Shown here: positions 3,859 to 27,641 of the stretch, piece after piece
How the letters are laid out: each line of letters starts with the position of its first letter
Position numbering within the stretch: the stretch's first letter is position 1
DNA from: Lyngbya sp. HA4199-MV5
GTDB lineage: Bacteria; Cyanobacteriota; Cyanobacteriia; Leptolyngbyales; Leptolyngbyaceae
Direction of reading: 5' to 3'
Length of the DNA: 64,000 nt
NCBI GenBank assembly: GCA_019359375.1
Contig: JAHHHL010000030.1
Coordinates: 14,341-78,340, forward strand
Position numbers and translations under genes: made by a program
The notes under the pieces: generated by a model
Databases searched by the model: none
What the model was told of the DNA's origin: nothing
Seen by the model: the letters and a program-made list of their open reading frames with translations, nothing else

Positions 3859-5334
3859 TTAACGCTTCTTTAAGCGCGCCATGAAAAACCCATCCATCTT
3901 GTGCTGATGTGACCACACCTTGACCCAGCCCTCAGTTGTAACGAAAGCAGCGGGAGGGGAAGTGGCTTCTGGCGGGTCGATCGCCCATTCAGAATGGCAT
4001 TCAAGAAATCTTTGCACGATCGCCTCATTTTCTTGTGGATGTAACGTGCAGGTCGCGTAAACCAGCATGCCAGAAGGTTTCACCCAGGAGGCGGCTTGCT
4101 CCAATAATTCGGCTTGCAGTTGAGTCAATTGCTGTACCGTTTCGGGCGTTTGTCGCCAACGAGCGTCGGCATGACGATGCAAGGTGCCTAACCCAGAGCA
4201 TGGCGCATCTACCAGTACCCGATCGCATTGCCCTATAAATTGCGGCAGATTGCGACTATCACCTTCACAAAGCTGAAGCGATCGCACCCCTAGGCGATCA
4301 GCATTTTGCTTGAGCTTGCGGAGACGAGAAGCCGCGCGATCGCACGCCCAGATCACACCCTGATCCTGCATCAACTCCGCCAGATGCATCGTTTTGCCAC
4401 CCGGTGCAGCGCAGGCATCCACTACGATGTCTCCCGGTTTGGGATCGACCAGATAGCCCACCAGTTGCGCGCTACTGTCTTGCACCAGCCACCATCCTTC
4501 GGCGAACCCTGGTAACTGCTGCATCGCTCCAGACGCATTAGGAAGTCTCAATGCCTGCGGCAAATGAGGCACCCGACTCACCGCAATCCCTGCACTGTGC
4601 ATGGCGGCTTCAACGGTTTCAATGGCTGCTCGTAGCGTATTCACCCGTAGATCAATGTGCGGCGGCTGGTTCATCCACTGACACAACTGCTCCGTTGCCT
4701 CAATTCCCAATTGCTCCAGCCATACATCCACAATCCAATTGGGGTAGCTGTGCAAAACACCCAGGCGATCGATCGAAGGATAAAGGCTTAAGGATAAAGG
4801 ATCAACAAAACGGTCAGAATCTTCTCGATTGTTCTCTGCTTCCTGCCTTCTGCCTTCTGCCTCCTGCCCCCTGCCCTCTGCCTTCTGCCCCCTGTCCCCT
4901 GCCCCCTGCCCCCTACCGCCACTCCCCACTCCCCTATCTTCCTCCCTCAACCGCACATACTGTCGCAACACCCCATTCACAAACCCCGTTAGCCCCGCAA
5001 ACCCATTTTGTTTCGCCAGATCAACCGTTGTATTCACAGCAGCAGAGGCAGGCACCTGATTCAAGTAGCGCAGTTGATATAACCCCAAATGCAGAATGGT
5101 ACGCAGATCAGCAGGCTGTTGCTGGGCAGGCTTCTTGGCGAGTTGGTCAATGAGGGCATCCAGGGTGCGCTGACGACGAATGCTGCCGTACACCAACTCA
5201 GTCAACAAGCGACGATCGGGCAGGCTACTCAGCTTTGCCTGATGCAGAATTTGATCCAGAGCAACATCGGCGAAGGCTCCTCGCTGTACCGATCGCAGCG
5301 CTAAAAAAGCCAACTGACGAGGATTTTGAGTCAC
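3859..5334 (-). CDS. rsmB: 16S rRNA m5C967 methyltransferase RsmB with in-frame repeat insertion
   Basis: NusB-like N-terminus, DACAAPGGKT, VLVDAPCSGLG, YATCTL motifs; ~50-aa G/E/R/Q insert at ~4780-4945. Confidence 0.95.
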   Translation of the reverse strand: MTQNPRQLAFLALRSVQRGAFADVALDQILHQAKLSSLPDRRLLTELVYGSIRRQRTLDALIDQLAKKPAQQQPADLRTILHLGLYQLRYLNQVPASAAVNTTVDLAKQNGFAGLTGFVNGVLRQYVRLREEDRGVGSGGRGQGAGDRGQKAEGRGQEAEGRRQEAENNREDSDRFVDPLSLSLYPSIDRLGVLHSYPNWIVDVWLEQLGIEATEQLCQWMNQPPHIDLRVNTLRAAIETVEAAMHSAGIAVSRVPHLPQALRLPNASGAMQQLPGFAEGWWLVQDSSAQLVGYLVDPKPGDIVVDACAAPGGKTMHLAELMQDQGVIWACDRAASRLRKLKQNADRLGVRSLQLCEGDSRNLPQFIGQCDRVLVDAPCSGLGTLHRHADARWRQTPETVQQLTQLQAELLEQAASWVKPSGMLVYATCTLHPQENEAIVQRFLECHSEWAIDPPEATSPPAAFVTTEGWVKVWSHQHKMDGFFMARLKKR

Positions 5335-5379
5335 GAAAGATGCGGAAGAACACTGTTCTCAGGATAACAGGATGGCTGA

Positions 5380-5944
5380 GAGTGAACCCATCACGCAGGC
5401 GATCGTGCTGCTACTGTCACCCTCAAAGCCTCATGCGATCGAAACATCTTTCGCTGTCGGCTTAACGCACCATTAATACAGCGTCATTAAAATGTAGCAG
5501 CTAGATCCAACACTATTGCTCAACAATACTGCACTTCGCCCGCTAGCACCTTTTACAGCAGCAAAAGCGCCAGCGCAACTGCTTCATCAGGTAGTTCAGC
5601 AAGTCAGTAAGATAGAATCAGCACAGCAGCGACAGCAGATTTCTGTTTATACGCAACTCTTAGTGGGATTACGCTTTAAGAAAGAGCTGGTGAAGCAGAT
5701 ATTGCAGGAGGACATGATGCGGGAGTCCGTCATTGACCAAGAGATTCTTCAAGAAGGACGGCAGGAAGAAGGTGTTACCCTGGTTCTGCGTCAATTAACG
5801 CGGCGATTTGGCACGCTTGATGCTGCCGTGCGATCGCAAATTGCCACCTTACCCCGACCGCTTCTAGAAGACCTGGGTGAAGACTTGCTCGACTTTACCG
5901 CACTCACAGATTTAGTTGACTGGCTGCAACGGCATCAGCCTTGA
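5380..5944 (+). pseudogene. Rpn/YhgA-like putative transposase-nuclease remnant with C-terminal DUF4351-type domain
   Basis: Frame continues upstream of ORF 5516 through TAA 5474-5476 and TAG 5495-5497 (H*YSVIKM*QLDP vs typical HRYRVIRMWEQDP); C-terminus LVLRQLTRRFG...LEDLGEDLLDF..L.DL..WL; N-terminal part missing. Confidence 0.7.
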
Positions 5945-5959
5945 TTGAGACGGCATTGC

Positions 5960-7171
5960 ATGGATGAGCCAAAACAAGACCTCTTGCTAACCGTTCACGC
6001 GATCGGTGAACAAGGCTTGCTAAAAATTGTGCAGTCGTTTTGTCCAACGGACGTGATCGGCGATGATGCGGCAGTGCTGACACCTCAGCCAGGGCGATCG
6101 CTCATCGTCACAACCGATATTTTGGTGGATGGCGTACATTTCAGCGACCAAACAACCTCGGCAGAAGATGCAGGTTGGCGAGCCGCCGCCGCAAATCTCT
6201 CTGATCTAGCAGCAATGGGTGCAACGCCTTTAGGCATCACGATCGGCTTGGGGTTACCCGGAGATGTACCAGTAGCGTGGGTTGAAGGACTCTATCGGGG
6301 CGTGTCTGCATGTTTAAGACAGTACAGGAGCACGATCGTGGGCGGTGATCTGTGTCGATCGCCCGTCATCACGATCGCCATTACAGCGTTTGGAGAAGCT
6401 GAGCCAAACCAAATTATCCGTCGTTCCGCCGCCCAACCAGGTGATGCGATCGTCGTTACAGGCTATCACGGTGCCTCTAAAGCTGGATTAGAACTGTTAC
6501 TGCATGCTGAAAACGGTCGATCGCTCAGTGAGGGCGATCGTATTCATCTGATCCAAGCGCACCAGCGTCCCAAGCCTCGACTGGATGTGGTGGCATGGCT
6601 TTGGGGGGAAGGCAGAGGGCAGAAGGCAGAGGGCAGAAGGCAGAAGGCAGGAGGGGAGGCAGAGGGGGCAAGGGAGGCTGGGGAAGCAGAGGCAGTAATG
6701 GGAGAGAGACAGCCTTGGGGCGATGAGGGACAGAATTTAACTCACCCCTTTCCCCTTCCCCCTTCCCCCTTCCCCCTCCCTGCACCCCACACCCTACGCT
6801 CTACACCCCACACCCGCATTGCTGGTATGGACAGCAGCGATGGCTTAGCCGATGCAATCATCCAAATTTGTCGTGCCAGCCATGTAGGAGCTAGCATTGA
6901 GCGCAGTCAGATTCCCATCCCTCCAGCTTTAGCGCAATGGGTCGGTGCAGAGCAAGCGTTGGCATGGGCGTTGTATGGCGGCGAGGATTTTGAGCTAGTA
7001 CTGTGTCTGCCGTTGGAGTGGGCGCAGACGTTGGTACAGAAGGTGGGTGGTAGCGCGGCGATCGTCGGCTCCATTACAGCGACTCCAGACGTTCGGCTTG
7101 TAGATACAATTGGCAACGCACCTGAGCAGCCGTTAACGCTGGAGCGGGGCTTTCAGCACTTTACCGATTAG
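5960..7171 (+). CDS. thiL: Thiamine-monophosphate kinase with in-frame repeat insertion
   Basis: IGDDAAVL, LVDGVHFS, ANLSDLAAMGA, GGDL, GMDSSDGLA, GGEDFELV motifs; ~70-aa insert at ~6603-6815. Confidence 0.95.
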   Translation: MDEPKQDLLLTVHAIGEQGLLKIVQSFCPTDVIGDDAAVLTPQPGRSLIVTTDILVDGVHFSDQTTSAEDAGWRAAAANLSDLAAMGATPLGITIGLGLPGDVPVAWVEGLYRGVSACLRQYRSTIVGGDLCRSPVITIAITAFGEAEPNQIIRRSAAQPGDAIVVTGYHGASKAGLELLLHAENGRSLSEGDRIHLIQAHQRPKPRLDVVAWLWGEGRGQKAEGRRQKAGGEAEGAREAGEAEAVMGERQPWGDEGQNLTHPFPLPPSPFPLPAPHTLRSTPHTRIAGMDSSDGLADAIIQICRASHVGASIERSQIPIPPALAQWVGAEQALAWALYGGEDFELVLCLPLEWAQTLVQKVGGSAAIVGSITATPDVRLVDTIGNAPEQPLTLERGFQHFTD

Positions 7172-7187
7172 CGTTACGCAACCATGC

Positions 7188-9920
7188 TCATCGCAGGTAG
7201 GCGATCGTCACACCCGCCCCACCATCCGCACGACCTGCTAGTTCGTATCTTTCTACTTGAGGATGGTGCTGCAAAAAGTCGTGGACTCCCTGCCGCAGCT
7301 TGCCTGTGCCATGCCCGTGAATGATCCACAGAACACCACTGTCATACGCCTTTGCGATCGCCTGTTCCATCAACGGTTCAGCATCGGCAACGCGACTACC
7401 GCGAATGTCGATCGTATTGCGATCGGTGCGAATAATCGGGGTGCCGGGTTCTGGGGATAGGGTGTCGGGCAAGTCAGTTTGAGTGCCTCCTGCCTCCTGC
7501 CTCCTGCCTTCTGCCCCTTGCGCTCTGCCTTCTGCTTTCTGCCTCTTCACCGCCTTTTCTCCATCTAACGACTCCACATCGTCGATCGGCACGGTCATCT
7601 TCATCAGCCCAAAGCGGACGGTGATTTCTTCATCGTCATTCGGAGCCGTCAGCACTTCAGCGGTTTGACCCAGACGTGGAATGCGGACACGATCGCCCAC
7701 CTGCGGACGAAACCCTGGTTTGGGTGGTTTGCGTTGCCGTGAGGGTAGACGAGTTTCGGCAAGCTGATTGAGCGAGTCGGTTGCCTGTTGTGCCGCCTGA
7801 GCCGATACAGGACCTTGCTGAAGTTGGCGGATCACCTGAGCAATTTCACTCTTTGCCTCAGCGATCGCCGCTTGCACTGCCTGTTCTTGCGCTTGTTGTA
7901 AGGACTGTTCTCGCTCCTTTAAAGATGCGGCTTTGCGAGACAGTTCTCGATGAAGACGTTCGGCACTTTCTAGTAGTGTTGCCGCTTCTTGAGACTTCGT
8001 TTCCTGACGGCGACGCTGTGCTTCCAGTCCGGCTATCACCTGGTTCACATCGTCTGATGCACCACCGACATAGGTTTGTGCCTGCTCCACAACGCTGGCA
8101 TCTAGCCCCAGGCGACGGGCGATCGTCAGCGCATTCGATCGTCCGGGGATACCCCACAGCAGGCGATAGGTCGGCGATAGCGACACATCATCAAACTCAA
8201 CGGACGCATTTTCAAACCGATCGTCCTGATACTTCAACGCCTTCAGTTCGCCAAAGTGCGTCGTGGCAATTGTCAAACCCGCATGATCTGCCAGGTGCTT
8301 GAGCAACGCGATCGCCAGCGCACTACCTTCAGAGGGATCGGTGCCAGCACCCACTTCGTCGAGAAGGACGAGGGAGTATGGGGTGTGGGGTGTGGGGTGT
8401 GGGGTGTGGGGTGCAGGGTGTGGGAGGTCTAAGTTTTGAGTTGAAGAACTAGCTTCTCCCCCTGCTCCCTCTGCTCCTACTTCCCCTGCCCCTTCTGCTT
8501 CTCCTCCTGCCTTCTGCCCTCTGCCTCCTGCCTCCTGCCCTCTGCCTTCTGCCTCCTGCCCTCCTAATGCTTCCTCAGCCTCCCCTGCCTCTTCCCCTCT
8601 GCCTCCTGCCTCCTGCCCTCTGCCTTCTGCCTCCTGCCCTCCTAATGCTTCCAAAATCCGACTAATCCGCCGAATGTGCCCCGAAAAAGTCGAAAGGCTT
8701 TGTTCCAGAGATTGTTCGTCACCAATATCGGCTAGCACCTGATCAAACCATGGCAATTCCACAGGTTCGCGGGCGGGGACGAATAGCCCAACTTTTGCCA
8801 TGAGGACGGCTAACCCAAGAGTTTTGAGGGTGACGGTTTTGCCGCCTGTGTTGGGTCCCGTAATGGCGACGACGCGAATGTGGGGTTGAATGACGAGATC
8901 GATCGGCACCACGGCTCGTCCCTGTTCGTGTTGCTGTTGCCAGAGAAGTAGGGGGTGACGGAGATGGCGAAGGACGATCGAAGTGGGTGTGGGGTGTGGG
9001 GTGTGGGGTGTGGGGTCAGATGGGATTGCAGTGTCCCGTGTGATGAAACGAGGAGGATTGGCTTCTAACCACAGACTGTAGCGGGCGCGGGCAGTGGCGA
9101 GATCCAGGGTGATGGCGATCGCCAGTAGTCGTTCTAAGTCAGGCTTGACGGTGGCAACTTGATCAGTGAGTGCTTGCCGGACGGCTTCTTCCTCGCTTTG
9201 CTCCTGGCGCTGAAGCTGGCGCAGTTGATTGTTGAGACTAACGGTGGCTTGTGGCTCAACGTACAACGTGGCACCGCTCATAGACGTATCATGCACGATG
9301 CCGGGAATCGCGTCTTTTTGGGGTGCCTTGACGGGGATGACGAAGCGCCCTTCGCGCTGGGTGATCAGGCTTTCTTGCACGGCGTTTGCTTTGCGCTGCA
9401 AGAGGTTTTGTAAGGTGCTGTAGACTCGATCGCGCAGGTGTTTTTGCTGTTCTCGAATGCCAGCTAGCTTGGGCGTTGCACGATCGGCAACCTGACCACG
9501 ATCGTCGATGCACCGGTGGATTTCTTGCTCCAGTTCAGGATACGTTCGTAGCTCCTCGATCAGCGCATTCAGCACCGTTAGATCTGGTTGGCTATCAATG
9601 ACACGCCTGAGCTGACGCATTCCAGCCAGCGTGGTGGCGATCGCCAAAAGCTCTTCACCAGACAGCAGCCCGCGCCGTTCTGCCCGCTCCAGCGATTCAC
9701 CAATATCGGTAATGCCGTCAAACTTTAGCCCCGTGCTGAGACGGCTTTCGAGCGCATAGACTTCCTGCGTTTGTGCTAGCAGGGTCAACGTTTCGGCTTG
9801 CGTGTTGGGGATGCGGAGACGACGAGCGGCAATTGCCCCTAGCTTAGTTGCCGCAAAGGTGGAGAGGTGCTGGCAAAGCCGCGACCATTCTAAAAGTTCA
9901 AGGGTTTCAGCTTGGATCAA
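7188..9920 (-). CDS. mutS2: Endonuclease MutS2 with three in-frame repeat insertions
   Basis: ITGPNTGGKT Walker A, LVLLDEVGAGTDP Walker B, C-terminal Smr domain (IIHGHGTGKLR). Confidence 0.95.
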   Translation of the reverse strand: MIQAETLELLEWSRLCQHLSTFAATKLGAIAARRLRIPNTQAETLTLLAQTQEVYALESRLSTGLKFDGITDIGESLERAERRGLLSGEELLAIATTLAGMRQLRRVIDSQPDLTVLNALIEELRTYPELEQEIHRCIDDRGQVADRATPKLAGIREQQKHLRDRVYSTLQNLLQRKANAVQESLITQREGRFVIPVKAPQKDAIPGIVHDTSMSGATLYVEPQATVSLNNQLRQLQRQEQSEEEAVRQALTDQVATVKPDLERLLAIAITLDLATARARYSLWLEANPPRFITRDTAIPSDPTPHTPHPTPTSIVLRHLRHPLLLWQQQHEQGRAVVPIDLVIQPHIRVVAITGPNTGGKTVTLKTLGLAVLMAKVGLFVPAREPVELPWFDQVLADIGDEQSLEQSLSTFSGHIRRISRILEALGGQEAEGRGQEAGGRGEEAGEAEEALGGQEAEGRGQEAGGRGQKAGGEAEGAGEVGAEGAGGEASSSTQNLDLPHPAPHTPHPTPHTPYSLVLLDEVGAGTDPSEGSALAIALLKHLADHAGLTIATTHFGELKALKYQDDRFENASVEFDDVSLSPTYRLLWGIPGRSNALTIARRLGLDASVVEQAQTYVGGASDDVNQVIAGLEAQRRRQETKSQEAATLLESAERLHRELSRKAASLKEREQSLQQAQEQAVQAAIAEAKSEIAQVIRQLQQGPVSAQAAQQATDSLNQLAETRLPSRQRKPPKPGFRPQVGDRVRIPRLGQTAEVLTAPNDDEEITVRFGLMKMTVPIDDVESLDGEKAVKRQKAEGRAQGAEGRRQEAGGTQTDLPDTLSPEPGTPIIRTDRNTIDIRGSRVADAEPLMEQAIAKAYDSGVLWIIHGHGTGKLRQGVHDFLQHHPQVERYELAGRADGGAGVTIAYLR

Positions 9921-10193
9921 GTTGTATCAACAGGTTACGCTTTCTCTATTTTAAGGAGTTCTCCGACCCAGCGACGTGCCATCCGTAAAAGAGTCGGCAG
10001 ACGATCGCGGGCTGTGCGTGAGTTGCATCACCAAGCATTTGTTGCTGTATCACTCAGCGATCGCTACAGCATCACCTGCGAGAATCCAGCGCATCACACG
10101 GCATTTACCTAAATGTCACACTACTCATGCTGTCTGAACTTCATACTAGATTCATAAAACTTAGATTCGTAAGCTTGAGAAAAGGGGTGTACG

Positions 10194-10394
10194 ATGAGTC
10201 TGGTTAATCAGGTTGTGCAAAAAGCGATTTGCCGTGGTTATCTAACCGCTGAAGCAGAGCAAACTCTGTGCAAATACATCAGCGACCATTGCAACTTACA
10301 CGATGTAACAGCACTAACGATGTTGCAACGTGCTATGTTATCGGGTCAGGTAAAACGGCTGTCACAACGACATCAGCAACCCAACCTCGCGTAG
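10194..10394 (+). CDS. Small conserved cyanobacterial hypothetical protein
   Basis: 66-aa ORF with upstream AAAGGGG; pattern V..A...GYLT.EAE..L resembles a common cyanobacterial small-protein family. Confidence 0.7.
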   Translation: MSLVNQVVQKAICRGYLTAEAEQTLCKYISDHCNLHDVTALTMLQRAMLSGQVKRLSQRHQQPNLA

Positions 10395-10418
10395 TCCTTC
10401 ATGCAACTGCTACTGAAG

Positions 10419-11192
10419 CTAAAACTGATCTTTCATACCTCTCAGTCGAGCAAAGGTTTGAATGCCGTTGCCTGACTGCACGATCGCTTGAATTTCTACA
10501 TTATCCCAGCGCAAAAACGGATTGGTGTGTTTCTCTACTCCCAAATTCGACGGTATCGTTGCCTCATTGCGGCTGCGACTAGCTTTCACCTCTGCGAAGC
10601 GCTGTTGCAAGGCTGCATTAGCACGATCCACCGTTAAAGCAAACTCAAGATTCTTTAGCGTGTATTCATGTGCACACCAAACACAGGTATTGTCTGGCAA
10701 GGCGCGAAGCTTGCTAAGAGACTGCACCATCTGTGTTGGCGTGCCTTCAAATAATCGACCACAGCCACCAGAAAAGAGCGTGTCGCCGCAAAATAGTTGC
10801 CCTGCCTCGTTTGGAGTCACAGGCGCAAAATAGTAGGCAATGTGAGCGCGGGTGTGACCGGGGACAAACAGCACCTCAGCATCACGATCGCCAAACGACA
10901 CGCGATCGCCATCCCGCAAAAACACTTGCTGTCCAGGAATGCGATCGCGATCTTCAGCCCCACCACATACCACTGCTTCGGGGAATTGCTGCAACAGTCT
11001 GGTATTTCCTCCTACGTGGTCAGCGTGATGGTGCGTGTTCAAAATAGCAACCAATTCAGCACCCAACGTTTTTAAGCAATGTAGAACAGGTACAGCATCC
11101 GCTGGATCAACCACTGCCGCGAGGTTTTGCAATGGGTCATGCAGCAGAAAGATGTAGTTATCCGATAGCGCTGGCAGCCGATAGACTTGCAT
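10419..11192 (-). CDS. gloB: Hydroxyacylglutathione hydrolase (glyoxalase II)
   Basis: [10 protein letters not shown] metallo-beta-lactamase motif, [28 protein letters not shown]. Confidence 0.95.
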
Positions 11193-11234
11193 GGCTCAGA
11201 CTTCCAAATAGTAAGGCTACCCCATCACCGTAAC

Positions 11235-11500
11235 AAACTGGGGGATGAGGGATGAGGGATGAGGGATGAAAGAGTTTTGAGTTGAACCAGTTGTTGGTTG
11301 TTGGTTGTTAGTTGTTGGTTGTTGGTTGTTAGAAAGAGGGGAATAGGGAGCAGGGAGTAGGGTTAAAGGATGGCGCTTGGAGTGCTCGCTGTCCGCTCAC
11401 TCCTGACTTCTGACTCCTTCTAATGACTCCTTCTAAAAACTAAAAACTAAAAACCTTTCTGGTATGCCCATAGGGCTTTACAACTCACCTGCCTTCTGCC
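11235..11500 (-). repeat. Composite STRR element copy E (core interrupted)
   Basis: On minus: (GTTTTTA)3-GAAGGAGTCA...-(TAACAAC/CAACAAC)n-TGGTTCAACTCAAAACTCT, the last motif identical to copy B flank. Confidence 0.75.
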
Positions 11501-11636
11501 TTCTCTCAAGCTTTACCAATTCTTCATCCATTTTGCCCCTATCGTTGCACAGTCGTTATGCAGCCCTTGCTAGAAGGTGAGGAGTGAGGGGAACAATCAA
11601 TTATCAGGTATTAAATTATGCAAGCAGGTGGGCATC

Positions 11637-11840
11637 ATGCGAGGTCTTCAAAGCAACCCAAATTCAGCAATTCATCAGATGGTCGATCGCATTCTCACGG
11701 TTGGTGAAATGTCCCGTCAAGAGCATCTCAAACTTACGTCCATTCTGCTGGCTGAGCAACAGTTGGCAGATAGCGATCGCACCAAAATTAATCGTATTTT
11801 TGACCACATTCAAACGGGTCGTTTAAAACTTATTGATTAA
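11637..11840 (+). CDS. Small conserved cyanobacterial hypothetical protein
   Basis: C-terminal INRIFDHIQTGRLKLID resembles a common cyanobacterial small-protein family; start chosen at ATG 11637. Confidence 0.7.
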   Translation: MRGLQSNPNSAIHQMVDRILTVGEMSRQEHLKLTSILLAEQQLADSDRTKINRIFDHIQTGRLKLID

Positions 11841-11868
11841 GGCACTACAAACGCTTTGGAGGTTTTGC

Positions 11869-12528
11869 TTACTGTTGGAGGTAATTTCGGGCTTCTTGAG
11901 CAACTTGCTCCACATCGTCTTGCGCCAGTGCTTCCAGGGTTGAGCGAGCCGTTGACCCATTCAAATGTGCCAGCGCTTGTACCACTCGATAGCGGATTTG
12001 CCAATCGGCATTGGTTGCAAAGGGAATGAGCGACTGAATGGCACGCGTGTCACCCAGTTCTCCCAATGACCCGATCGCAGCGGTTTGCAGCAATTCGTTA
12101 TCCGATTGCAGCGCTTCTTCAAGTAGCTCGAAGGCTCGTTGATCGCCTAACTCACCTAAAGTCGCCACAATGCTGAATTTGACCAGCCATTCAGAAGTGG
12201 TGTGATAAAGCTGCTGCAAATCATCAAAGATCTCGGTTAATTTAAGCGCACCTACAGAGTCAGCCGCCGCCGCTTGCACATCTGGGTCGTCATCTCGTAG
12301 CCGATCGCGCAGCAGTCTGGAGACATGAGGCAAATCTTGCTGCCCCAGTGTGGCTAGCTGGCTGACGGCTGCATAGCGCACGCGTGGATTCGTGTCTTGC
12401 AAGGCAATCTGAATCAGCTTAAAACCGATTGGGGGTTCCAGTTGTCGGATCTGATTTACAGCACGCAGGCGATCGCCAAAATCTGACGACTCTAATAACA
12501 CGCCAACGGATTCAGGTGTGATGCTCAT
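11869..12528 (-). CDS. nblB: Phycobilisome degradation HEAT-repeat protein NblB
   Basis: HEAT/PBS-lyase repeats; MSITPESV..LL.S.DFGDRLRAVNQ, EWLVKFSIVATLGELGD motifs. Confidence 0.85.
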   Translation of the reverse strand: MSITPESVGVLLESSDFGDRLRAVNQIRQLEPPIGFKLIQIALQDTNPRVRYAAVSQLATLGQQDLPHVSRLLRDRLRDDDPDVQAAAADSVGALKLTEIFDDLQQLYHTTSEWLVKFSIVATLGELGDQRAFELLEEALQSDNELLQTAAIGSLGELGDTRAIQSLIPFATNADWQIRYRVVQALAHLNGSTARSTLEALAQDDVEQVAQEARNYLQQ

Positions 12529-12534
12529 CGCTAG

Positions 12535-12887
12535 TCTGAAAGTGAGGGGTGAGGGGTGAGGAGGCAGAGGGCATAAGGGATGGGGGATAAGGGATGAAGG
12601 CTTGGAAAAGGCAGAAGGCAGAGGGCAGGAGGCAGAAGGCGAGAGAAGTTGTTGGTTTTTGGTTTTTAGTTGTTAGAAGAAGGCAGGTGGCAGAAGGATA
12701 AGGGGTAAAAAGCTGGCTCCTGGCTCCTGACTGTTGAAGACTCGTAGAAGGCAAAGGGAGCTTTTAGTTTTTAGAAGGAGCCAGGAAAGGCTCAAGCAGT
12801 AATAACCAACAACTAACAACCAACAACTAACAACTGGTTCAACTCAAAACTCTTGCCCCTCGCTCCTCACTCCTTACCCCTCACTCC
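12535..12887 (+). repeat. Composite STRR element copy B with extended heptamer arrays
   Basis: Core GAAGGAGCCAGGAAAGGCTCAAGCAG at 12774-12799 between (GTTTTTA)n and (TAACAAC)n arms. Confidence 0.85.
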
Positions 12888-13355
12888 TCACCCGTCTTGC
12901 TCTGCTGCCATTGCACGAATAATGTCGCCACGAGTGAGAATGCCCACTACCTGACCTTCGGCGTTGAGCACGGGCAGGCGATGAATTTTGTGCTCATGCA
13001 GGATTTGAGCCGCTTCTCGTAGGGGCTTGTCTGGGGTGACTGTAATCGGTTTCTGGCTCATGACTTCCTTAACGGTTTGCCCCAAGGCTTTGTGCAATTC
13101 GCGTTCGTAATGACCAGGGTTTTCCAGGTAAATTACACTGTCCAGGAGCATGATGTAGGGCGGCGGTGTGACTCCGGTTTCTCGCCACATCAGGTCGGTC
13201 TCAGAAATAACTCCCACTAGCTTACCTGCGTCATCCACCACGGGTAGACCGCTAATTTTTTTCTCGGCGATCGTCCGAATGACTTCTGAGAGGGGTGTCT
13301 CCGGTGTTACCGTCAACGGGTCACGGGTCATAATATCTGCAACAGTCTTGGGCAT
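12888..13355 (-). CDS. CBS-domain pair protein
   Basis: TVADIMTRDP..V, ISGLPVVD, IHRLPV, VGILTRGDIIR. Confidence 0.9.
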   Translation of the reverse strand: MPKTVADIMTRDPLTVTPETPLSEVIRTIAEKKISGLPVVDDAGKLVGVISETDLMWRETGVTPPPYIMLLDSVIYLENPGHYERELHKALGQTVKEVMSQKPITVTPDKPLREAAQILHEHKIHRLPVLNAEGQVVGILTRGDIIRAMAAEQDG

Positions 13356-20115: not shown

Positions 20116-20273
20116 TAGTCTCTAGAAGATCTCTTAAAGGCTACAAGTCACAGCCCAAACTGTCCCACAGCCTTCAATTTCTGGGGAACCCGGCGTTCAA
20201 ACTTTCTCAAGATTAGGGATCGAGGAGCAAAAGCAGCACGTTTGAGCCTTCTCAGACAGCCTCTGACTTCCCG

Positions 20274-20307
20274 TCTGTAGGGACGTTACATGTAATGTCC
20301 CTACAGA
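20274..20307. repeat. REP-like palindrome (GTAGGG...CCCTAC class)
   Basis: TCTGTAGGGACGTTAC-AT-GTAATGTCCCTACAGA. Confidence 0.75.
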
Positions 20308-20539
20308 AAGAATTACGCCTGATTAAATTCGCGTTCCTTCGTGTGGGAGAACGTTACCAGTCAGATTGTACAGACTCCAAGCACTTGTCTTGGTACAGCT
20401 CAATGCCCTTTTCAAACAAACAGGACAGACGATTGATCAACTCAAACACGGTTTGCTTGACGATTACCTATCTCAGCAACTCCCTATTTCAACAACTCAA
20501 AGAGCCGTCTTTTACAATGGCTTCTGCGTCAGTCCTATT

Positions 20540-21742
20540 CTACTGTCTTCCGGTTTGCGACCAAACGCGAGTAGGCAGACCCCAAACGTAGATGAAGCCC
20601 TCAGCCGCTCTGTGGTCAAACGTATCGTCTGCACCATAGGTTGCCAGATCGGGGCTGTAAATTGAGTGCGCTGACTTACGCCCAACCACGATCGAGTTGC
20701 CCTTAAACAGCTTGATACGAACGGCACCCGTCACGCGCTCCTGGCTTTTTTTCACGAAGGCATCTAAAGCATCGCGGAGGGGGCTGTACCAAAGACCGTT
20801 ATAGACCAGCTTGGAGTATGTATCCTCAATGCCGCGCTTGTAATGGATAAGATCAGACGTAAGAGTCAGGCTTTCGAGATCTCGATGCGCTTGAATGAGT
20901 ACAGACAGAGCAGGCGTTTCGTACACTTCACGCGACTTGATGCCAACTAAGCGGTTCTCGATCATGTCGATGCGTCCCACGCTGTGGGCACCCACAATCT
21001 GGTTGAGTTCTGTCACGAGGGCTACTGGCTCGGTTGGTTTACCATTCAGGGTAGTGGGAATGCCTTGCTCAAAGCCAATTTCCACATACTCTGGCTGGTC
21101 GGGTGCCTCGGCGATCGCCGCCGTCATGGTGTACACATCTTCTGGCGGCTCTGTCCAGGGATCTTCTAATGGACCTGCCTCGATCGCGCGACCCAGCAAA
21201 TTCTTATCAATACTATAGGGCGAGGATTTTTTGACGGGTGATTCAATGCCAAACCGTTCCCCATAGGCGATCGTTTCTTCACGGCTCATCCCCCATTCGC
21301 GCGCTGGGGTGAGGACTTTGATGTCGGGGTTGAGGGCAGCGATCGCCACATCAAACCGCACCTGATCATTCCCCTTCCCCGTACAGCCATGCGCCACCGC
21401 ATCCGCACCATACTCCGCAGCAGCATCTACCAGGAGCTTGGCAATCAACGGGCGCGCCAGTGCAGTCGAAAGCGGGTATTGATTTTCGTACAGCGCATTC
21501 GCCTGAATGGCTGGAAAGGCGTAGTCTTTGACAAAATCTGCCGTTGCATCTGCCACCAGCGACACAGAAGCCCCCGACTTGAGTGCCTTTTCTCGCACAG
21601 GTTCCAGTTCATCCCCCTGCCCCAGATCCGCAGCAAGAGTAATGACTTCTTCCACTCCCCATTCGTGCTTCAGGTAGGGAATGCAGACGGAGGTATCGAC
21701 TCCGCCAGAGTATGCCAGCACAACTTTTTTGGCGCGACCCAT
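20540..21742 (-). CDS. argG: Argininosuccinate synthase
   Basis: [38 protein letters not shown]. Confidence 0.98.
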
Positions 21743-21919
21743 GACTGCCTCGGTTGGATAGGTTTAGTTGAATCAATTCACTGAGCCATCATTATGCAGT
21801 GAATTTTGACCAATTCATGTCAGAACAAGCACAGAACTTGGAGAACGGGTACGATAAGGGCGATCGAGGCTTAGAAGCGAGTATTACGACCGTGAATTAG
21901 ACACGTACAGCCAGTTAAA

Positions 21920-22049
21920 CTAGGGGCTGTCATCAATTCCGACTACACACCACTTGCGGCAAGGGTTCCAGCCCCTAGCTTGTTTGTTGGGACGGGCGCG
22001 ACAATGCTGATACCACAAGCTTCTGAGCTGAATTGATGACGCGCCCTAG
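21920..22049. mobile_element. MITE family A, copy 2
   Basis: CTAGGGGCTGTCATCAATT...AATTGATGACGCGCCCTAG; colinear with 3067-3198. Confidence 0.85.
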
Positions 22050-22055
22050 TTATAC

Positions 22056-22247
22056 ATGGCACCGAATGACGAGCAGGCTCAGGGACTTTACAGACTCTGC
22101 TATCGACTGACTAACACCATTTATCCAGGCTGGCAGTATCGAGCGATCGAGCTTGTCAGAATGGATGAGCAAACTGGTAATTTGTATCTGCTTGCTGGCG
22201 ATAGCCTGGACTTTGAGATCAAGCCAAGTGGAGGATATGAGCCGTGA
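22056..22247 (+). CDS. DUF6888-like small protein (putative TA component)
   Basis: P..EQ...LYRLCY.LT...IELVRMDEQTGNLYLLAG...EI.P.G pattern; overlaps next gene (GTGA). Confidence 0.7.
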   Translation: MAPNDEQAQGLYRLCYRLTNTIYPGWQYRAIELVRMDEQTGNLYLLAGDSLDFEIKPSGGYEP

Positions 22248-22456
22248 CAAACGCTAACTTTGACGCAATGAATTTAGACGAGTTACGTCGGTATGTCTTG
22301 GCTCATCGAGAAGATGTTAATGCTTTTCATGTGTACGTCGATCGCTCAAAAGCATCAGGGCGCATGATTACAATTAATCCAAACGATCCAGGCTGGGAGG
22401 ATACCCTGGAGCAGAGGATTCAGCAAGCAACGTCTGGTGACGCAGAATCGAATTAG
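22244..22456 (+). CDS. DUF6887-like small protein (putative TA component)
   Basis: NF.AM..DELRRYVLAHRED..AF..YVD pattern; homolog at 38575-38787. Confidence 0.75.
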   Translation: MTNANFDAMNLDELRRYVLAHREDVNAFHVYVDRSKASGRMITINPNDPGWEDTLEQRIQQATSGDAESN

Positions 22457-22471
22457 CCGCACTGCCTTCTC

Positions 22472-22846
22472 CTACATTGCACTACCCGGTTTACAGGTCA
22501 GCGTGCCTTGTTTCTGGTTTGGCTGCCCGCCCATCGGTTTCACATCTAAGGACGGTTGATAAGTAGGGTAGCAGCGCACAAGAATGACATCGTTAGGTTG
22601 CGTACTGTACAACACATAGACAGGCTTACCACCCAGTACGGCTGGCACCAGTTTGGGTGGTTGAGCAGCAGTGGCAACGAGTTCGGGGGCATGATCGCCC
22701 ACTGGCACTCCCGTCTGATTGATTGGCTCAGCCGTCAACCCCGCAGCTGAGAGCGCAGGAGTCGCTTGCAGAAAATGAATGCAAAAAGCTAACGCGATCG
22801 CCAGCGCCACCAGCACAACTTCATGTTTAACCGGAACTTTGATCAT
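22472..22846 (-). CDS. Hypothetical secreted protein
   Basis: Signal-peptide-like N-terminus, two Cys; no family recognised. Confidence 0.6.
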   Translation of the reverse strand: MIKVPVKHEVVLVALAIALAFCIHFLQATPALSAAGLTAEPINQTGVPVGDHAPELVATAAQPPKLVPAVLGGKPVYVLYSTQPNDVILVRCYPTYQPSLDVKPMGGQPNQKQGTLTCKPGSAM

Positions 22847-23135
22847 GGTTCAGCCTCCTCTCTATAAGTTCACCGAGATTGAATTACAGCCGTTTTCATT
22901 TGCATTCACCACACCCTACACCCTACACCCCGTACCCGCACGCGCTAGACTGTGGCTTATTCATCAGTAACCGCTGCAAGCCCTACTCTACCCCGTCCAC
23001 AGGAAAAATTAAGCGTCTTATTGCCTCACGGTTCATGCCGTCGATCTAAAGTTTGGTATCAGAGTTGCAATCACGCCACGATCGCGGAGCGTATAAGGCA
23101 GAATGGGCGATGGAGACTTCAAGGGAGAGGCAATT

Positions 23136-25130
23136 ATGCCAATGGGGATAAACTTCGGACGTGAAGTCTGCGGTGATTTTGACCAGGCACAAGCACGGGA
23201 ATGGCTGGTCACGAATGGCATCGGTGGCTATGCATCAGGCACGATCGCGGGACTACTCACCCGACGCTATCACGGGCTATTGGTGGCAGCCTTGCAGCCC
23301 CCGTTAGGGCGCACGCTCATGCTGGCAAAGCTGGACGATACGGCATTGTACGGCGATCGCTTCTATCCCCTCCATGCCAATCGGTGGTCTGACGGTACGG
23401 TTGGTCCCCACGGCTACCGTCATTTGGAACGCTTTGTTTTAGAGGGCACGATTCCCACCTGGCACTATGCCTGCGCCGATGCGTTGCTGGAAAAGCGCGT
23501 GTGGATGCAGCCCGGTGCCAATACGACCTATGTGTATTACCAACTGGTACGCGGCACCCAACCGTTAACGCTGACCATGAAAGCGATGGTGAACTACCGG
23601 GATTACCACAGCAACACGGTGGGCAATGGCTGGCGGATGACCATCGTACCTGCCGAACATGGGGTTTACATCTCTGCTTACCCGGAAGCGGCACAGCTTT
23701 ATCTCGCCAGCGATCGCGCCGATGTCACCACTGCCCACGACTGGTACTACGGATTTGAACTCACGGCTGAGCGCGATCGGGGGCTGAACGACCACGACGA
23801 TCATCTCCATGCGGCGACCTTTCAAGCCACACTACAACCAGGAGAAACACTCACATTGGTTGCCAGTACCGAGCGAAAGCCAGAACGCGATGGCGAAGCC
23901 GCGCTTAAAATCCGTCGTGCGTATGAATACAAGCTGTTAGGACTCTGGCACAGCAACCGTCCTGTAGACACCAAAGATATTCCCGCCTTTGCCGATCAAC
24001 TGGTGCTGGCAGCCGATCAATTTGTTGTGCAGCGATCGACCCCCGAAGAACCCCACGGCAAAACCATCATTGCGGGCTACCACTGGTTTAGCGATTGGGG
24101 ACGCGACACGATGGTTAGCCTGCCTGGTTTGACGCTAGCAACAGGTCGTCCCGAAATTGCGCGATCGATCCTGCGTACCTTTGCCCGTCACGTCAATCAG
24201 GGGATGCTGCCAAACCGCTTTCCCGACGCGGGCGAACTGCCCGAATACAATACAGTAGACGCGACGTTGTGGTTCTTTGAAGCTGTCCGCGCCTACTACG
24301 GCGTGACCGAAGATGATGATTTAGTGCAAGACCTCTTTCCGGTGCTGGCAGACGTTGTGGATTGGCACTGCCGGGGCACCCGCTACAACATTCACCTCGA
24401 TCCGGCTGATGGGTTGCTGTATGCAGGCGAAACGGGCGTGCAGTTGACCTGGATGGATGCCAAAGTGGGCGATTGGGTCGTCACACCGCGCATTGGCAAA
24501 CCCATTGAGGTCAATGCCCTGTGGTACAACGCGCTACGAACGATCGCCAAACTTGCCCGCACGATCGGCAAGCCCCATCAAGAATACGAAGCGATGGCCG
24601 ATCGTACCCTGGCACGCTTCTCGCGCTTCTGGCATCCCGAACTGGGCTATTGCTACGATGTGCTGGATGGCACGGATGGCGATGACGCATCCTTGCGCCC
24701 CAACCAGATCTTTGCCGTCTCGCTGCCTGAAAGTCCTCTATCAGCCGCTCAACAGAAAGGCGTAGTGGATGTTTGCGGGCGAGCGTTGTTGACCTCCCAC
24801 GGGCTGCGATCGCTCGACCCTAACCATCCCAAGTATCAGGGCACCTACGGCGGCGACCAACGTCAGCGCGACGGAGTTTACCATCAGGGCACTGTGTGGG
24901 GGTGGCTCCTTGGTCCCTTTGTATTGGCACACCTGCGCGTCTATGGCGATCCGATCAAAGCTCGTGCCTTTCTCGAACCGATGGCAAATCATTTCTACGC
25001 CCACGGAGTCGGCAGTCTCAGCGAAATTTTTGATGGTGATGCACCGATGAAACCCCAAGGCTGCATTGCTCAAGCGTGGACGGTCGCAGAGGTACTACGG
25101 GCGTGGCTGGCGACGGAGACAGAGCGATAA
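23136..25130 (+). CDS. Amylo-alpha-1,6-glucosidase (glycogen debranching enzyme family)
   Basis: EWLVTNGIGGYASGT, IIAGYHWFSDWGRDTM, YNTVDATLWF, LTWMDAK, QAWTVAE. Confidence 0.93.
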   Translation: MPMGINFGREVCGDFDQAQAREWLVTNGIGGYASGTIAGLLTRRYHGLLVAALQPPLGRTLMLAKLDDTALYGDRFYPLHANRWSDGTVGPHGYRHLERFVLEGTIPTWHYACADALLEKRVWMQPGANTTYVYYQLVRGTQPLTLTMKAMVNYRDYHSNTVGNGWRMTIVPAEHGVYISAYPEAAQLYLASDRADVTTAHDWYYGFELTAERDRGLNDHDDHLHAATFQATLQPGETLTLVASTERKPERDGEAALKIRRAYEYKLLGLWHSNRPVDTKDIPAFADQLVLAADQFVVQRSTPEEPHGKTIIAGYHWFSDWGRDTMVSLPGLTLATGRPEIARSILRTFARHVNQGMLPNRFPDAGELPEYNTVDATLWFFEAVRAYYGVTEDDDLVQDLFPVLADVVDWHCRGTRYNIHLDPADGLLYAGETGVQLTWMDAKVGDWVVTPRIGKPIEVNALWYNALRTIAKLARTIGKPHQEYEAMADRTLARFSRFWHPELGYCYDVLDGTDGDDASLRPNQIFAVSLPESPLSAAQQKGVVDVCGRALLTSHGLRSLDPNHPKYQGTYGGDQRQRDGVYHQGTVWGWLLGPFVLAHLRVYGDPIKARAFLEPMANHFYAHGVGSLSEIFDGDAPMKPQGCIAQAWTVAEVLRAWLATETER

Positions 25131-25254
25131 AATATGGTTAACGGAGGAGGAGTGCAAGCCATCGCAGCCATGGTCAAGCTTGGCTGGCACGCTCACTACC
25201 GCATCTTCGCTCCTTTTTTCCCAACTAGCTTTCGTGTCTGCTCGGTGTAGCGTT

Positions 25255-25719
25255 CTAATCAATGTAGTCTCGCAGCATATCCGGTTTTTCTTGGTTATGC
25301 GCCGTAATCGGGCGATCGCCATCGACGGGAAGCGTTTTGCGAATTTGAAGTTTACTCGTTTCAATCGGTCGTTTGCCATCTTCGTAGACAACTTCTTTCA
25401 CATCTAAATGGCTCGCCGTAATCGGGCGATCGCCATCAATGCCCAAAGTTTTGTCACTATCGATCGCACGGGCACCAATGGGGCGAGTACCATCCATCTC
25501 AAATGTGTCGCTCACATGAACGTCACTGGCAACAACTGGGCGCTTGCCATCAATGGGTAAAACATACTGGATTTGAAGCTCACTATCATCAATGGGGCGA
25601 TTGCCATCGACCTCAAGCATCCTGGTCTCTTGCCGCTCTTCGCCTGAAGGCATGATAGCGCCGTCATCCGGATGTTCCTGCTGTGTACTCACAGTGCAAA
25701 CTCCTGTTCTTGCTAGCAA
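25255..25719 (-). CDS. Hypothetical protein with six 19-aa DG.RP(I/V) repeats
   Basis: Exact 19-residue periodicity; start may be ATG 25653. Confidence 0.75.
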   Translation of the reverse strand: MLARTGVCTVSTQQEHPDDGAIMPSGEERQETRMLEVDGNRPIDDSELQIQYVLPIDGKRPVVASDVHVSDTFEMDGTRPIGARAIDSDKTLGIDGDRPITASHLDVKEVVYEDGKRPIETSKLQIRKTLPVDGDRPITAHNQEKPDMLRDYID

Positions 25720-25937
25720 CTCTCTACTTTTAACAGCTTGATGGTTGACCGATAACTGTCTAACGGTTGGTTTTGGGTGTTGAGTCGTTAAGGAATGAAA
25801 ATTAAATCACTTCGATCACCTCAGCCGTTTGATTGGACGGGCGCGACATGCGGCAGCTAACTCTGGGCGAAAGCAAAGATTTTTTACCGCATACCACGCC
25901 CCTACGCACAGAATGACACCTGATTTAATCCACGATC

Positions 25938-26645
25938 CTAAGCGATCGCCCGATCGCCCATCGCTGCCAAAATGCCTTCAAACAATGGCATCCCGTCTGT
26001 TCCACCCAACAGTGAATCAGAAGCTCGTTCTGGGTGGGGCATCATGCCGAGCACATTGCCGTTGCGGTTGCAGATGCCTGCGATGTTGTTGAGTGAACCA
26101 TTGGGATTGCTGACATCATCCACATCTCCTGCATCGGTGACGTAGCGGAAGACAATTTGACCATTCGCTTCCAGATCTGCCACCGTAGCGGCATCGGCAT
26201 AGTAGTTGCCTTCACCATGCGCGATCGGTAGCGTAATCACGGCTCCTTTCTGATAATTCTGCGTCCAGGGTAAATCGGTGCATTCGACACGGAGGGGCAC
26301 GCGATCGCAAATGAAGTGCAAATCTCGATTGCGGACTAAGGCTCCTGGCAGCAACCCCGCTTCCGTTAGCACCTGAAACCCGTTGCAGATGCCCAGGACG
26401 AGCTTTCCCTGTTTGGCATGGTTGATGGTTGCCTGCATGGCGGGAGAGAACCGCGCGATCGCCCCGCAGCGCAGGTAATCGCCATAGCTAAAGCCTCCCG
26501 GCACGACAATCACATCCAGGTCAGTCAGATCGCTTTCTTCATGCCAGACCATACGGGTGGATTGCTGCAACAGCGATTGCGTGACATACGCCACGTCGCG
26601 ATCGCAATTGGAACCTGGAAAGACAATGACACCAAATTTAACCAT
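25938..26645 (-). CDS. purQ: Phosphoribosylformylglycinamidine synthase subunit PurQ
   Basis: [36 protein letters not shown]. Confidence 0.97.
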
Positions 26646-26657
26646 GACGCTCTGTTA

Positions 26658-27230
26658 CTAACCTAACGGGATGCCTGCTTGCTGAAACACTTGCTCTGCG
26701 GTGAATGCTAACCCCTCAAAGAGCGGATCTGTCAGCAGTGTATCGCCTCTATAGGTTTGAGGTGGCGCATCAGGGTAGAAAACAGTAACGCTTCTGGCTT
26801 TACTATCAACAACCCAAACTCGCAGCACGTTGGCATTCAGATACGCCCTCGCTTTTGCCGCCAGTTCGCCAAACGTCTGCCCTGGTGAGATGATTTCGAT
26901 CGCCAGATCTGGAGGCACAGAACACGCCCCGTCCTCATCCCAATCAGCAGGCAGTCGTTCGTTGGTTATGTACAGCAGATCAGGCGTAGGCACCCAGCTT
27001 TTGCCATCACGAGTTAACGTAATCGCCAGTTCAGGACACACTTCACCGCGTCCATTGCTCCATCCGTCAATCAGGTAAAGCAACGTGCGGGTTAACTTCG
27101 AGTGATTTTTCTTAGGAGACATTTTGGGAATCGCTTGCCCATCCACTAATTCATAAGTCAAATCACCCTCACCTGGCGGGAGAGCTAAAAATTCCTCAAG
27201 CGACAGTAACCCCTTGGCTTGAACAACCAT
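26658..27230 (-). CDS. Uma2-family endonuclease
   Basis: YELVDG, PDLLY, PPDLAIEIISP, Y...VLRVWVVD. Confidence 0.9.
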   Translation of the reverse strand: MVVQAKGLLSLEEFLALPPGEGDLTYELVDGQAIPKMSPKKNHSKLTRTLLYLIDGWSNGRGEVCPELAITLTRDGKSWVPTPDLLYITNERLPADWDEDGACSVPPDLAIEIISPGQTFGELAAKARAYLNANVLRVWVVDSKARSVTVFYPDAPPQTYRGDTLLTDPLFEGLAFTAEQVFQQAGIPLG

Positions 27231-27260
27231 AGTGCGTGAACCATTACGTTAGTTCTCATT

Positions 27261-27641
27261 CTAAAGGGATTCGGCTTGATGCAAGATCAGCCAATTGCCA
27301 TCGGGATCGTAGGCATAGATTTCTCTGCCGTGAGAGGCGGTGATGATGTCGCCGGGTGGTGGATAGCCGAGTTGGGTAAGGTGGGCGATCGCACTGTCTA
27401 AATTCTCGACCTCTAGACACAGACTCATGCCTGTGGAGGAGTGGGGAGTGGGGAGTGGGGAGTGGGGAGTGGGTGTGGGGTGAAAGATGCCGAGTTTTAA
27501 TCCTGGGAGATGAAATTCGGCGTAGATGTTGGGACGCAGAACGACGGGTTGCAGGTTGAAAAGCTGGCTGTAGAACTGAGTGAGGGCAGAAAAGCGAGTC
27601 GTTGAGAGGGTGAGTAGAGCGGCGGTACAGCGAAATGACAT
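27261..27641 (-). CDS. VOC/glyoxalase-family protein with in-frame STRR insert
   Basis: FYSQLF, LCLEVENLDSAIAHL, HGREIYAYDPDGN; (CTCCCCA)n-derived TPTPHSPLPTPHS. Confidence 0.85.
   Translation of the reverse strand: MSFRCTAALLTLSTTRFSALTQFYSQLFNLQPVVLRPNIYAEFHLPGLKLGIFHPTPTPHSPLPTPHSSTGMSLCLEVENLDSAIAHLTQLGYPPPGDIITASHGREIYAYDPDGNWLILHQAESL

Follow-up and report, generated by a model that had tools for sequence, protein, structure and literature searches.

Heptamer repeats in frame within five intact genes of Lyngbya sp. HA4199-MV5

Heptamer arrays in five genes

A 64-kb stretch of the genome of Lyngbya sp. HA4199-MV5 (contig JAHHHL010000030.1, positions 14,341 to 78,340), analyzed here in full and called the window, carries arrays of tandem 7-nt units that run through the reading frames of five genes. 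By Pfam, these genes were identified as rimM (374–1084, minus strand), rsmB (3859–5334, minus strand), thiL (5945–7171, plus strand), mutS2 (7188–9920, minus strand) and a glyoxalase/VOC gene (27261–27641, minus strand), each with complete domains and an open frame. Repeat tracts were called by Tandem Repeats Finder and by a separate period scan, and both methods detected heptamer tracts in all five genes. The window holds 21 period-7 tracts, 10 inside the five genes and 11 between genes; the same scan returned no tract at periods 5, 6 or 8–11 in the window, and 50 block-wise dinucleotide shuffles of the window gave no period-7 tract. That heptamer arrays lie inside five intact housekeeping genes is confirmed as a real observation. 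The main units in the window are GGCAGAR, CCCCACA, CCCCTTC, ACTCAAA and GTTGTTR, and copy numbers range from 4.3 to 10.4 and are non-integral (4.3, 4.6, 5.7, 6.6 and so on). The coding arrays are mostly imperfect, and near-perfect coding runs are found for GGGTGTG (4.6 copies, 100 %) and GTGGGGA (5.7 copies, 97 %). Near-perfect tracts are located at 8985–9016 and 27433–27473.

In mutS2, three sites are occupied. Site 2 (8379–8642, minus strand), the largest, comprises 88 codons and reads as a GGCAGAR purine arm, the spacer TCAACTCAAAACTTAGAC and a CCCCACA arm. Its purine arm holds a 78-bp in-frame tandem duplication (26 codons, 94 % identical), the most recent event visible in mutS2. Site 1 (8979–9026, minus strand) consists of CCCCACA heptamers (IPSDPTPHTPHPTPTS) in a variable loop that precedes the ATPase domain. 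Site 3 (7476–7544, minus strand) is a GGCAGAR arm ending in ACTCAAACT (RQKAEGRAQGAEGRRQEAGGTQT) within the linker between the SH3-like and Smr domains. The thiL insert (6608–6817, plus strand; 210 nt, 70 codons) runs from a GGCAGAR purine arm through a diverged middle (…CAGAATTTAACTCAC…) to CCCCTTC and CCCCACA pyrimidine arms. In the interdomain linker of rsmB, the insert (4774–4944, minus strand) opens with a purine arm at 4804–4944 that is built from GGGGAGT, GGGGGCA and GGCAGAR units (EEDRGVGSGGRGQGAGDRGQKAEGRGQEAEGRRQEAE...), followed by TATCCTT units at 4774–4803 that encode DPLSLSLYPS. GGCAGAR arms are common to rsmB, thiL and mutS2. The repeats of rimM lie upstream of the RimM domain in an N-terminal extension (905–1012, minus strand), where an A/G-rich part of GCAAAAA type (944–1012, 23 residues) precedes CCCTACA heptamers (905–943, 13 residues). 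In the VOC gene, a loop at 27435–27482 (minus strand) is encoded by CCCCACT heptamers (HPTPTPHSPLPTPHSS).

Insert lengths of 48, 264 and 69 nt in mutS2, 210 nt in thiL, 141 nt in rsmB and 48 nt in the VOC gene are all multiples of 3, as is the length of the rimM segment (905–1012), and translation of the insert segments revealed no stop codon. As just one of these lengths, the 210 nt of thiL, is also a multiple of 21, the frame is held by total length and not by growth in threes. It is worth mentioning that 88 nt of the thiL insert (6608–6695) recur in inverted orientation in the mutS2 insert (8462–8549; 81 % complementary), about 1.8 kb away in a convergent gene. Gene conversion could act on this pair, as could an inversion exchanging the 3' parts of both genes.

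To place the inserts in protein structure, we used AlphaFold2 models for thiL and rsmB and aligned MutS2 to the Bacillus subtilis protein (7QV3). Site 2 of MutS2 sets 88 residues between 7QV3 residues 406 and 409, where B. subtilis has 2, and thus falls between the helix following the signature motif and the Walker B strand. Relative to 7QV3, site 1 occupies a gap before the ATPase domain; site 3 maps to the pre-Smr linker. In the thiL model, the core reaches a predicted local distance difference test score (pLDDT) above 90, while residues of roughly 221–290, including the insert, average 39–65. In the rsmB model, residues 138–176, which lie between the NusB-like and central domains, form a coil whose pLDDT stays below 50. 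The rimM repeats belong to an N-terminal extension of about 60 residues common to about 30 relatives, and some annotated RimM orthologues (P0270, P0271) begin at MGKIV, giving 172 residues without the extension. Start calls around the heptamer arrays of rimM vary between annotation pipelines. The heptamer-coded VOC loop comprises 18 residues compared with about 17 in insert-free orthologues, and since the length is the same, it represents a replacement and not a net insertion; several VOC relatives carry inserts of 30–45 residues at that loop. Judged by these models and alignments, it is supported that the inserts occupy a tail, linkers or loops predicted to be disordered.

A first-pass annotation, made from the sequence, had described in-frame inserts in five unrelated, still-intact genes between 3859 and 27641. 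The intactness of the hosts is borne out by complete Pfam domains and open frames, and four of the genes fall within that range, whereas rimM lies outside. The term insert suits rsmB, thiL and mutS2, but rimM carries an N-terminal extension and the VOC gene a replacement. Of the two ways in which the frame was thought to survive, compensation agrees with total lengths divisible by 3. Expansion in threes was rejected on the lengths given above, and the 78-bp duplication does not conform to it either.

Intergenic composite elements and shared repeat units

Between the genes, heptamers are assembled into composite elements with a regular order: purine heptamers (GGCAGAR, GGGATGA, GTGAGGG), a GTTGTTR array, a loop, a YAACAAC array, GGTTCAACTCAAAACTCTT and pyrimidine heptamers. 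The element at 12542–12891 (plus strand) serves as reference for this layout, with GTGAGGG and AAGGCAG as purine arms and CCTCACT as pyrimidine arm. A second element (11237–11504, plus strand) combines a GGGATGA arm, the reverse-complement spacer AGAGTTTTGAGTTGAACC, a GTTGTTR array, a loop and arrays of ACTCCTG and CTAAAAA, and a third (2444–2597, plus strand) consists of a GGCAGAR arm, a GTTGTTR/YAACAAC inverted repeat (31 nt, 84 % complementary) and GCTGACC units. Partial elements of the same layout are present at 45040–45791.

The coding inserts reproduce the outer layout of the composite element minus its GTTGTTR/YAACAAC core. Both core arrays contain TAG or TAA on both strands and were found only between genes in the window; a stop-codon filter would account for the missing core in coding copies and for the fact that these contain only the open ACTCAAA orientation. 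The flank CAACTCAAAACT of the composite element was confirmed in the large mutS2 insert, and the 13-mer TCAACTCAAAACT occurs in exactly three copies in the window, one in this insert and two in intergenic composite elements. With up to two mismatches allowed, the 13-mer has 10 matches in the window against 1.8 expected. Frame, stop and polarity were counted over 81 loci totaling 1.46 Mb, where adjacent tract pairs ran from purine to pyrimidine in 16 cases within open reading frames (ORFs) and in 3 intergenic cases, with none reversed (19:0). Because the purine-first order reads alike on both strands, this polarity belongs to the element itself, whatever the orientation of the gene. Copies share arm units, polarity and the 13-nt spacer, and no full-length consensus exists. 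These shared features support grouping the coding inserts and the intergenic composite element in one repeat family, a kinship drawn from sequence comparison. The polarity of the thiL and large mutS2 inserts, the composite flank in mutS2 and the presence of one element in coding and intergenic DNA had all been put forward beforehand; the first two are confirmed, and the third is supported at the level of a shared repeat family.

Further copies were encountered outside the window. In the nearest relative, Leptolyngbya sp. BL-A-14 (locus L010), the mutS2 insert aligns with that of thiL over 199 nt at 79 % identity, and the two share a near-identical block of about 60 nt with a non-repeat core of about 35 nt (AACTCAAAACTTAGATCGCTCAAACCCGAYAACCC), which is read in the same frame in both genes as FSTQNLDRS and LTQNLDRS, respectively. 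A metagenome scan for spacer plus pyrimidine arm yielded two more copies, both on one 467-kb contig (JAESFU010000028.1), and a metagenome scan with a 27-nt core pattern gave no match. At L082:4289-6046, spacer and pyrimidine arm lie in frame inside a squalene-hopene cyclase, where they split the C-terminal domain match, and at L081:10088-12565 they lie at the 5' end of the gene for an 825-residue TPR protein, ahead of an apparent signal peptide.

The remaining features of the window are listed here for completeness. About 9 of 13 heptamer regions and 17 of the 21 tracts cluster within its first 13 kb, and the genes at 28 to 64 kb contain no heptamer region at all. With 78 occurrences against 1.4 expected, the HIP1 palindrome GCGATCGC shows the over-representation usual in cyanobacteria. 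An ORF of 154 residues at 25255–25719 (minus strand) consists of about six copies of a motif of about 16 residues, xDGxRP(I/V)xxxxL..., and an ORF of 410 residues at 36801–38033 (minus strand) contains 30-nt periodic repeats at 37038–37221 that, judged by eye, are pentapeptide-like (A(D/N)LxG...). The latter are ordinary repeats bearing no relation to the heptamers.

The same sites in other cyanobacteria

For comparison, 79 cyanobacterial MutS2 sequences from genome loci were aligned. As thiL adjoins mutS2 only in L010 and L005, the orthologues of rsmB, rimM and the VOC gene were taken from protein searches; an exact-protein look-up of thiL gave no match. The nearest MutS2 loci are those of Leptolyngbya sp. 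BL-A-14 (86 %), Stenomitos and other Leptolyngbyales, and not those of heterocyst formers. Throughout the alignment, all three MutS2 sites are variable and of low complexity in nearly every filamentous lineage. The anchor-to-anchor distance at site 2 ranges from 31 to 106 residues, and the site holds at least about 15 residues in all 79 sequences compared with 2 in B. subtilis, with a Gly/Glu/Arg/Gln-rich first part and a Pro/Thr/Ser/His/Gln-rich second part. Orthologues of thiL and rsmB carry the same kind of variable low-complexity insert at their single sites, measured against insert-free baselines of about 328–338 residues for thiL and 440–447 residues for rsmB. Variable low-complexity inserts at the same positions are seen in rimM and VOC orthologues as well.

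The content of these sites differs between lineages. Nostoc species fill the same MutS2 site with different heptamer pairs, among them GGGAATC/CCCCACT, GGGGACT/AATCCCC, GATGAGG/CCCCATG and .../CACTCAG. As the pairs differ even among Nostoc species, the sites are old and shared, while each lineage has content of its own that arose by replacement and not by mutation alone. Between the window and Leptolyngbya sp. BL-A-14, the MutS2 core is 94–97 % identical in protein sequence with 55–59 % identity at third codon positions, compared with 42–63 % identity in the inserts, where sites 1 and 2 additionally contain 10 and 28 gap codons, respectively. This indicates that the insert peptide is probably under little constraint. 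The purine arm of thiL is about 95 % identical over about 55 nt between the two genomes, which dates their thiL inserts to before the split. Taken together, the alignments suggest that the same sites are old permissive hot spots in most filamentous cyanobacteria whose content turns over.

The reading frame is kept throughout this turnover. All 79 MutS2 orthologues are in frame at the three variable sites, and of the 206 heptamer regions in the 81 loci, 61 are read through in frame by long ORFs, with 3 candidates for a frameshift. These candidates include thiL of Leptolyngbya sp. BL-A-14 (L010:12678-13872, minus strand), which is shifted within the pyrimidine arm of an insert of 217 nt, a length of 1 mod 3. 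This shift marks either a pseudogene, a phase variant or a homopolymer error in a C-run of a metagenome-assembled genome. Heptamer tracts reach a density of 0.48 per kb in intergenic DNA against 0.09 per kb in ORFs, a 5.4-fold difference, and units that are open on one strand only stand in the open orientation in 25 cases and in the other in 4.

The arrays were also checked against unassembled sequence. One DNA run carries the window sequence, and the check covers mutS2 site 1, which is tiled exactly by unitigs at about 500x; no alternative joint, length variant or deleted form appeared there, rare variants being hidden in contigs. On (GGGGTGT)n, 281 unitigs are stacked, some 270 of them in addition to the tiling ones, with a word depth of about 76,000 compared with about 540 in flanking unique sequence, which makes this heptamer abundant genome-wide. 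Homologous inserts at the same sites in many independent assemblies of relatives exclude an assembly artefact.

Folding of the inserts was assessed as z scores against dinucleotide shuffles. The three large inserts of the window score +0.48, +3.92 and +0.41 and thus fold no better than shuffles, by which a hairpin reading is ruled out for them. The MutS2 inserts of the window's clade lie at +1.5 to +2.8, and among the 79 site-2 inserts, 21 fall below -2. True hairpins within ORFs, with z of -3.7 to -7, were seen at MutS2 site 2 of Nostocales loci such as L058:11237-11329, L068:5442-5519 and L079:11237-11314. An alignment for covariation of the Nostocales hairpins is meaningless, as arrays are replaced and not substituted between species. 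Rfam and tRNA scans returned no match, and Pfam identified host domains only and no intein-type domain.

Interpretation and known repeat systems

With a probability of roughly 0.68, we read the inserts as tolerated, translated and fast-turnover repeat DNA that is filtered only for frame, stop codons and position. They would be copies of a dispersed two-armed heptamer element made of a purine arm such as (GGCAGAR)n, an ACTCAAA-type spacer and a pyrimidine arm such as (CCCCACA)n, (CCCCTTC)n or (CCCCACT)n, sitting in frame in permissive places, namely an N-terminal tail, linkers and surface loops, and being transcribed and translated through. Since 7 is no multiple of 3, successive units of an array fall into each of the three frames one after another, and the 7-residue peptide repeats arising from this (GRRQKAE..., PHTPHPT...) would form disordered low-complexity loops. 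The amino-acid sequence would be essentially free, and selection would act on a length divisible by 3, on the absence of stop codons and on position. Slippage of units, larger in-frame duplications and copying between arrays of the same genome may drive the turnover of content.

Several observations weigh against this reading. By design of the collection, mutS2 accounts for 52 of the 69 ORFs with tracts among the 81 loci, so that the counts are not independent. The MutS2 inserts of Nostocales fold with z of about -4 to -7 through complementary G-strand and C-strand arms, which could point to a role at the nucleic-acid level rather than neutrality. That the inserts are translated is suggested by frame conservation across species. 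Copying within a genome would fit the finding that 14-mers from MutS2 heptamers are 3.3-fold commoner elsewhere in the same locus than in the loci of other genomes, but an excess is seen for 13 of 71 tracts, and slippage alone could explain part of the unit turnover. Neither a mobilising enzyme nor terminal repeats nor a target-site duplication was identified, and no transposase search of the window was made.

Among the alternatives, retention for a nucleic-acid role, be it hairpin or G-quadruplex pausing, a recombination or gene-conversion mark or protein binding, would turn the peptide into a by-product. Such a role is in line with the strongly folding site-2 inserts, above all those of Nostocales, with the strict purine-first polarity, with site occupancy that lasts across the phylum despite sequence turnover and with the G-quadruplexes that Nostoc G-rich heptamers form in vitro (PMC4692102). 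The arms of the window's clade are not complementary, however, and z is positive there (+0.4 to +3.9 in the window); some thiL and rsmB orthologues are insert-free, so the feature is dispensable, and no sequence or structure is conserved across lineages. We consider it unlikely. Equally at home at interdomain linkers, loops and termini would be adaptive disordered segments serving spacing, solubility, condensates or partner binding, with the 7-nt periodicity as a trace of their origin, and their similar composition across lineages (Gly/Glu/Arg/Gln, then Pro/Ser/Thr/His) and the minimum length at site 2 in every cyanobacterial MutS2 agree with this. Yet lengths vary widely among close relatives, from 31 to 106 residues between fixed MutS2 anchors, insert identity is far under core identity, insert-free orthologues exist, and the composition follows from purine-only and pyrimidine-only heptamers that fill intergenic DNA just as well, which renders adaptation distinctly unlikely as the explanation.

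Slippage-prone contingency tracts that switch their host genes, especially mutS2, off and on as a single 7-nt unit is gained or lost are suggested by the near-perfect coding runs, by the shifted thiL of Leptolyngbya sp. BL-A-14 and by coding heptanucleotide repeats serving as a phase-variation device elsewhere. Against them stand the housekeeping hosts thiL, rsmB and rimM, for which switching off would be costly, the imperfection of most arrays, the invariant unitigs at mutS2 site 1 and the chance that the thiL shift is a homopolymer error; we regard switching as quite improbable. The first-pass annotation had raised skipping or excision of the inserts at the DNA or RNA level, and the hairpin-like two-armed layout and the strong hairpins of some orthologous inserts could be taken for signs of removal by DNA excision, an RNA intervening sequence or ribosomal bypass. 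Removal before or during decoding would make the conservation of frame and stop-free sequence needless, yet both are conserved, in 79 of 79 MutS2 sequences at three sites and in 61 of 64 regions overall, and the window genes are devoid of the stop-bearing core. Together with the blank Rfam and intein results, the lack of a deleted DNA form in the site-1 unitigs and folds not above shuffles, this makes removal very improbable, and excision is not supported. An origin as assembly artefact, which the same annotation had named as a possible refutation, as sequencing artefact or as chance low complexity finds its argument in the difficulty of assembling repeats. Given the exact tiling of site 1, dozens of independent assemblies with homologous inserts and the exclusive period-7 signal, it is extremely improbable.

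Tolerated, translated repeat DNA also accommodates what else had been proposed at the outset. Retention only where frame-neutral and tolerated, to which freedom from stop codons is to be added, agrees with the open frames, the low pLDDT and the gaps relative to 7QV3, and the suggested generation of disordered loops fits the low pLDDT of the insert segments in the AlphaFold2 models. Invasion of five genes needs revision: recent independent insertions do not fit, as the sites are filled in the closest relative and, by other heptamers, in most filamentous cyanobacteria. A stronger version, in which the element renews itself, is actively maintained in the same loops of housekeeping genes, homogenised by copying and moulded into hairpins within Nostocales ORFs, and acts at the DNA or RNA level as well as being a phylum-wide generator of disordered loops, appears doubtful to us; it might then serve as a site of recombination or gene conversion, or as a signal for replication or for pausing of translation. 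The purine-first polarity and the hairpin form in Nostocales could hint at the origin of the heptamer repeats.

Such inserts amount to a natural experiment on positions in conserved enzymes that tolerate long insertions, the clearest case being an ABC-type ATPase that accommodates 88 residues between its signature helix and Walker B strand. They present a non-triplet repeat able to create disordered protein segments and a genome-wide repeat family filtered by purifying selection on frame and stop codons. On the practical side, they inflate or destabilise gene models, as in the alternative starts of rimM and the frameshifted thiL of the relative, they break short-read assemblies, and nearby inverted repeats in adjacent genes could drive gene conversion or inversion.

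Several known systems invite comparison. The small dispersed repeats (SDRs) of Nostoc punctiforme described by Elhai et al. in 2008 are reported to be identical 21–27-nt units that resemble mobile DNA and are associated with heptamers and hairpins; they likewise are very small repeats of filamentous cyanobacteria, but the inserts here have no defined unit beyond a spacer or core of 13–35 nt. Phase-variable heptanucleotide genes such as NeuO of E. coli K1 are switched by perfect tracts close to their 5' end. They share 7-nt units in an ORF that is open at certain total lengths only, whereas the arrays here, mostly imperfect and internal, belong to housekeeping genes and keep a fixed frame. STRR heptamers are reported from heterocystous cyanobacteria, in work attributed to Mazel et al. 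in 1990, with STRR1 reading CCCCA(A/G)T, STRR2 TT(G/T)GTCA and STRR3 CAACAGT. A derivation from STRR, as stated in the first-pass annotation, is right in so far as both are dispersed, abundant and mostly intergenic tandem 7-nt units. The window units are, however, unlike the STRR1–3 consensus, with only CCCCACT of the VOC gene within one mismatch of STRR1, and the nearest relatives belong to Leptolyngbyales and Stenomitos and not to heterocyst formers. STRR sequences reportedly also occur inside the RNase P RNA gene rnpB, to go by the title of a paper by Vioque from 1997, and there too heptamer arrays would be tolerated within an essential gene, but one that encodes RNA and is free of any frame constraint. 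For Nostoc PCC 7120, Rehm et al. (2015, PMC4692102) report that 68 % of the heptamers fall between genes and the remainder within them, and that the G-strand is under-represented in the coding strand. That study dealt with G-quadruplex formation of the G-rich heptamers in vitro and did not examine frame, protein position or the sharing of sites across species (PMC4692102). In the literature searched, whose coverage is incomplete, we found no description of the two-armed coding layout, the fixed polarity or the phylum-wide reuse of sites.

In-frame repeat elements such as the Rickettsia palindromic elements (RPEs) are the nearest known kind, and the inserts described here are best read as a variant of these. 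RPEs are single units of about 100–150 bp with a family consensus and palindromic potential that occupy surface-exposed positions of apparently functional proteins. They were characterized as a dispersed repeat lying in frame in many unrelated conserved genes, as far as the account cited in PMC3184786 goes (Ogata et al. 2000, Science 290:347). The likeness consists in the in-frame occupation of unrelated conserved genes that are kept intact, here five genes with seven sites and complete Pfam domains, to which relatives add squalene-hopene cyclase as a host, and in the loop and linker positions seen in the low pLDDT of thiL and rsmB, the MutS2 gaps relative to 7QV3 and the rimM tail. In contrast to RPEs, the inserts consist of 7-nt units in tandem that vary in number and sequence and keep a fixed order, purines before pyrimidines. 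Those of the window do not form hairpins; many Nostocales orthologues do, with z as low as -7. Moreover, a whole group of genera has its inserts at these same positions of the proteins.

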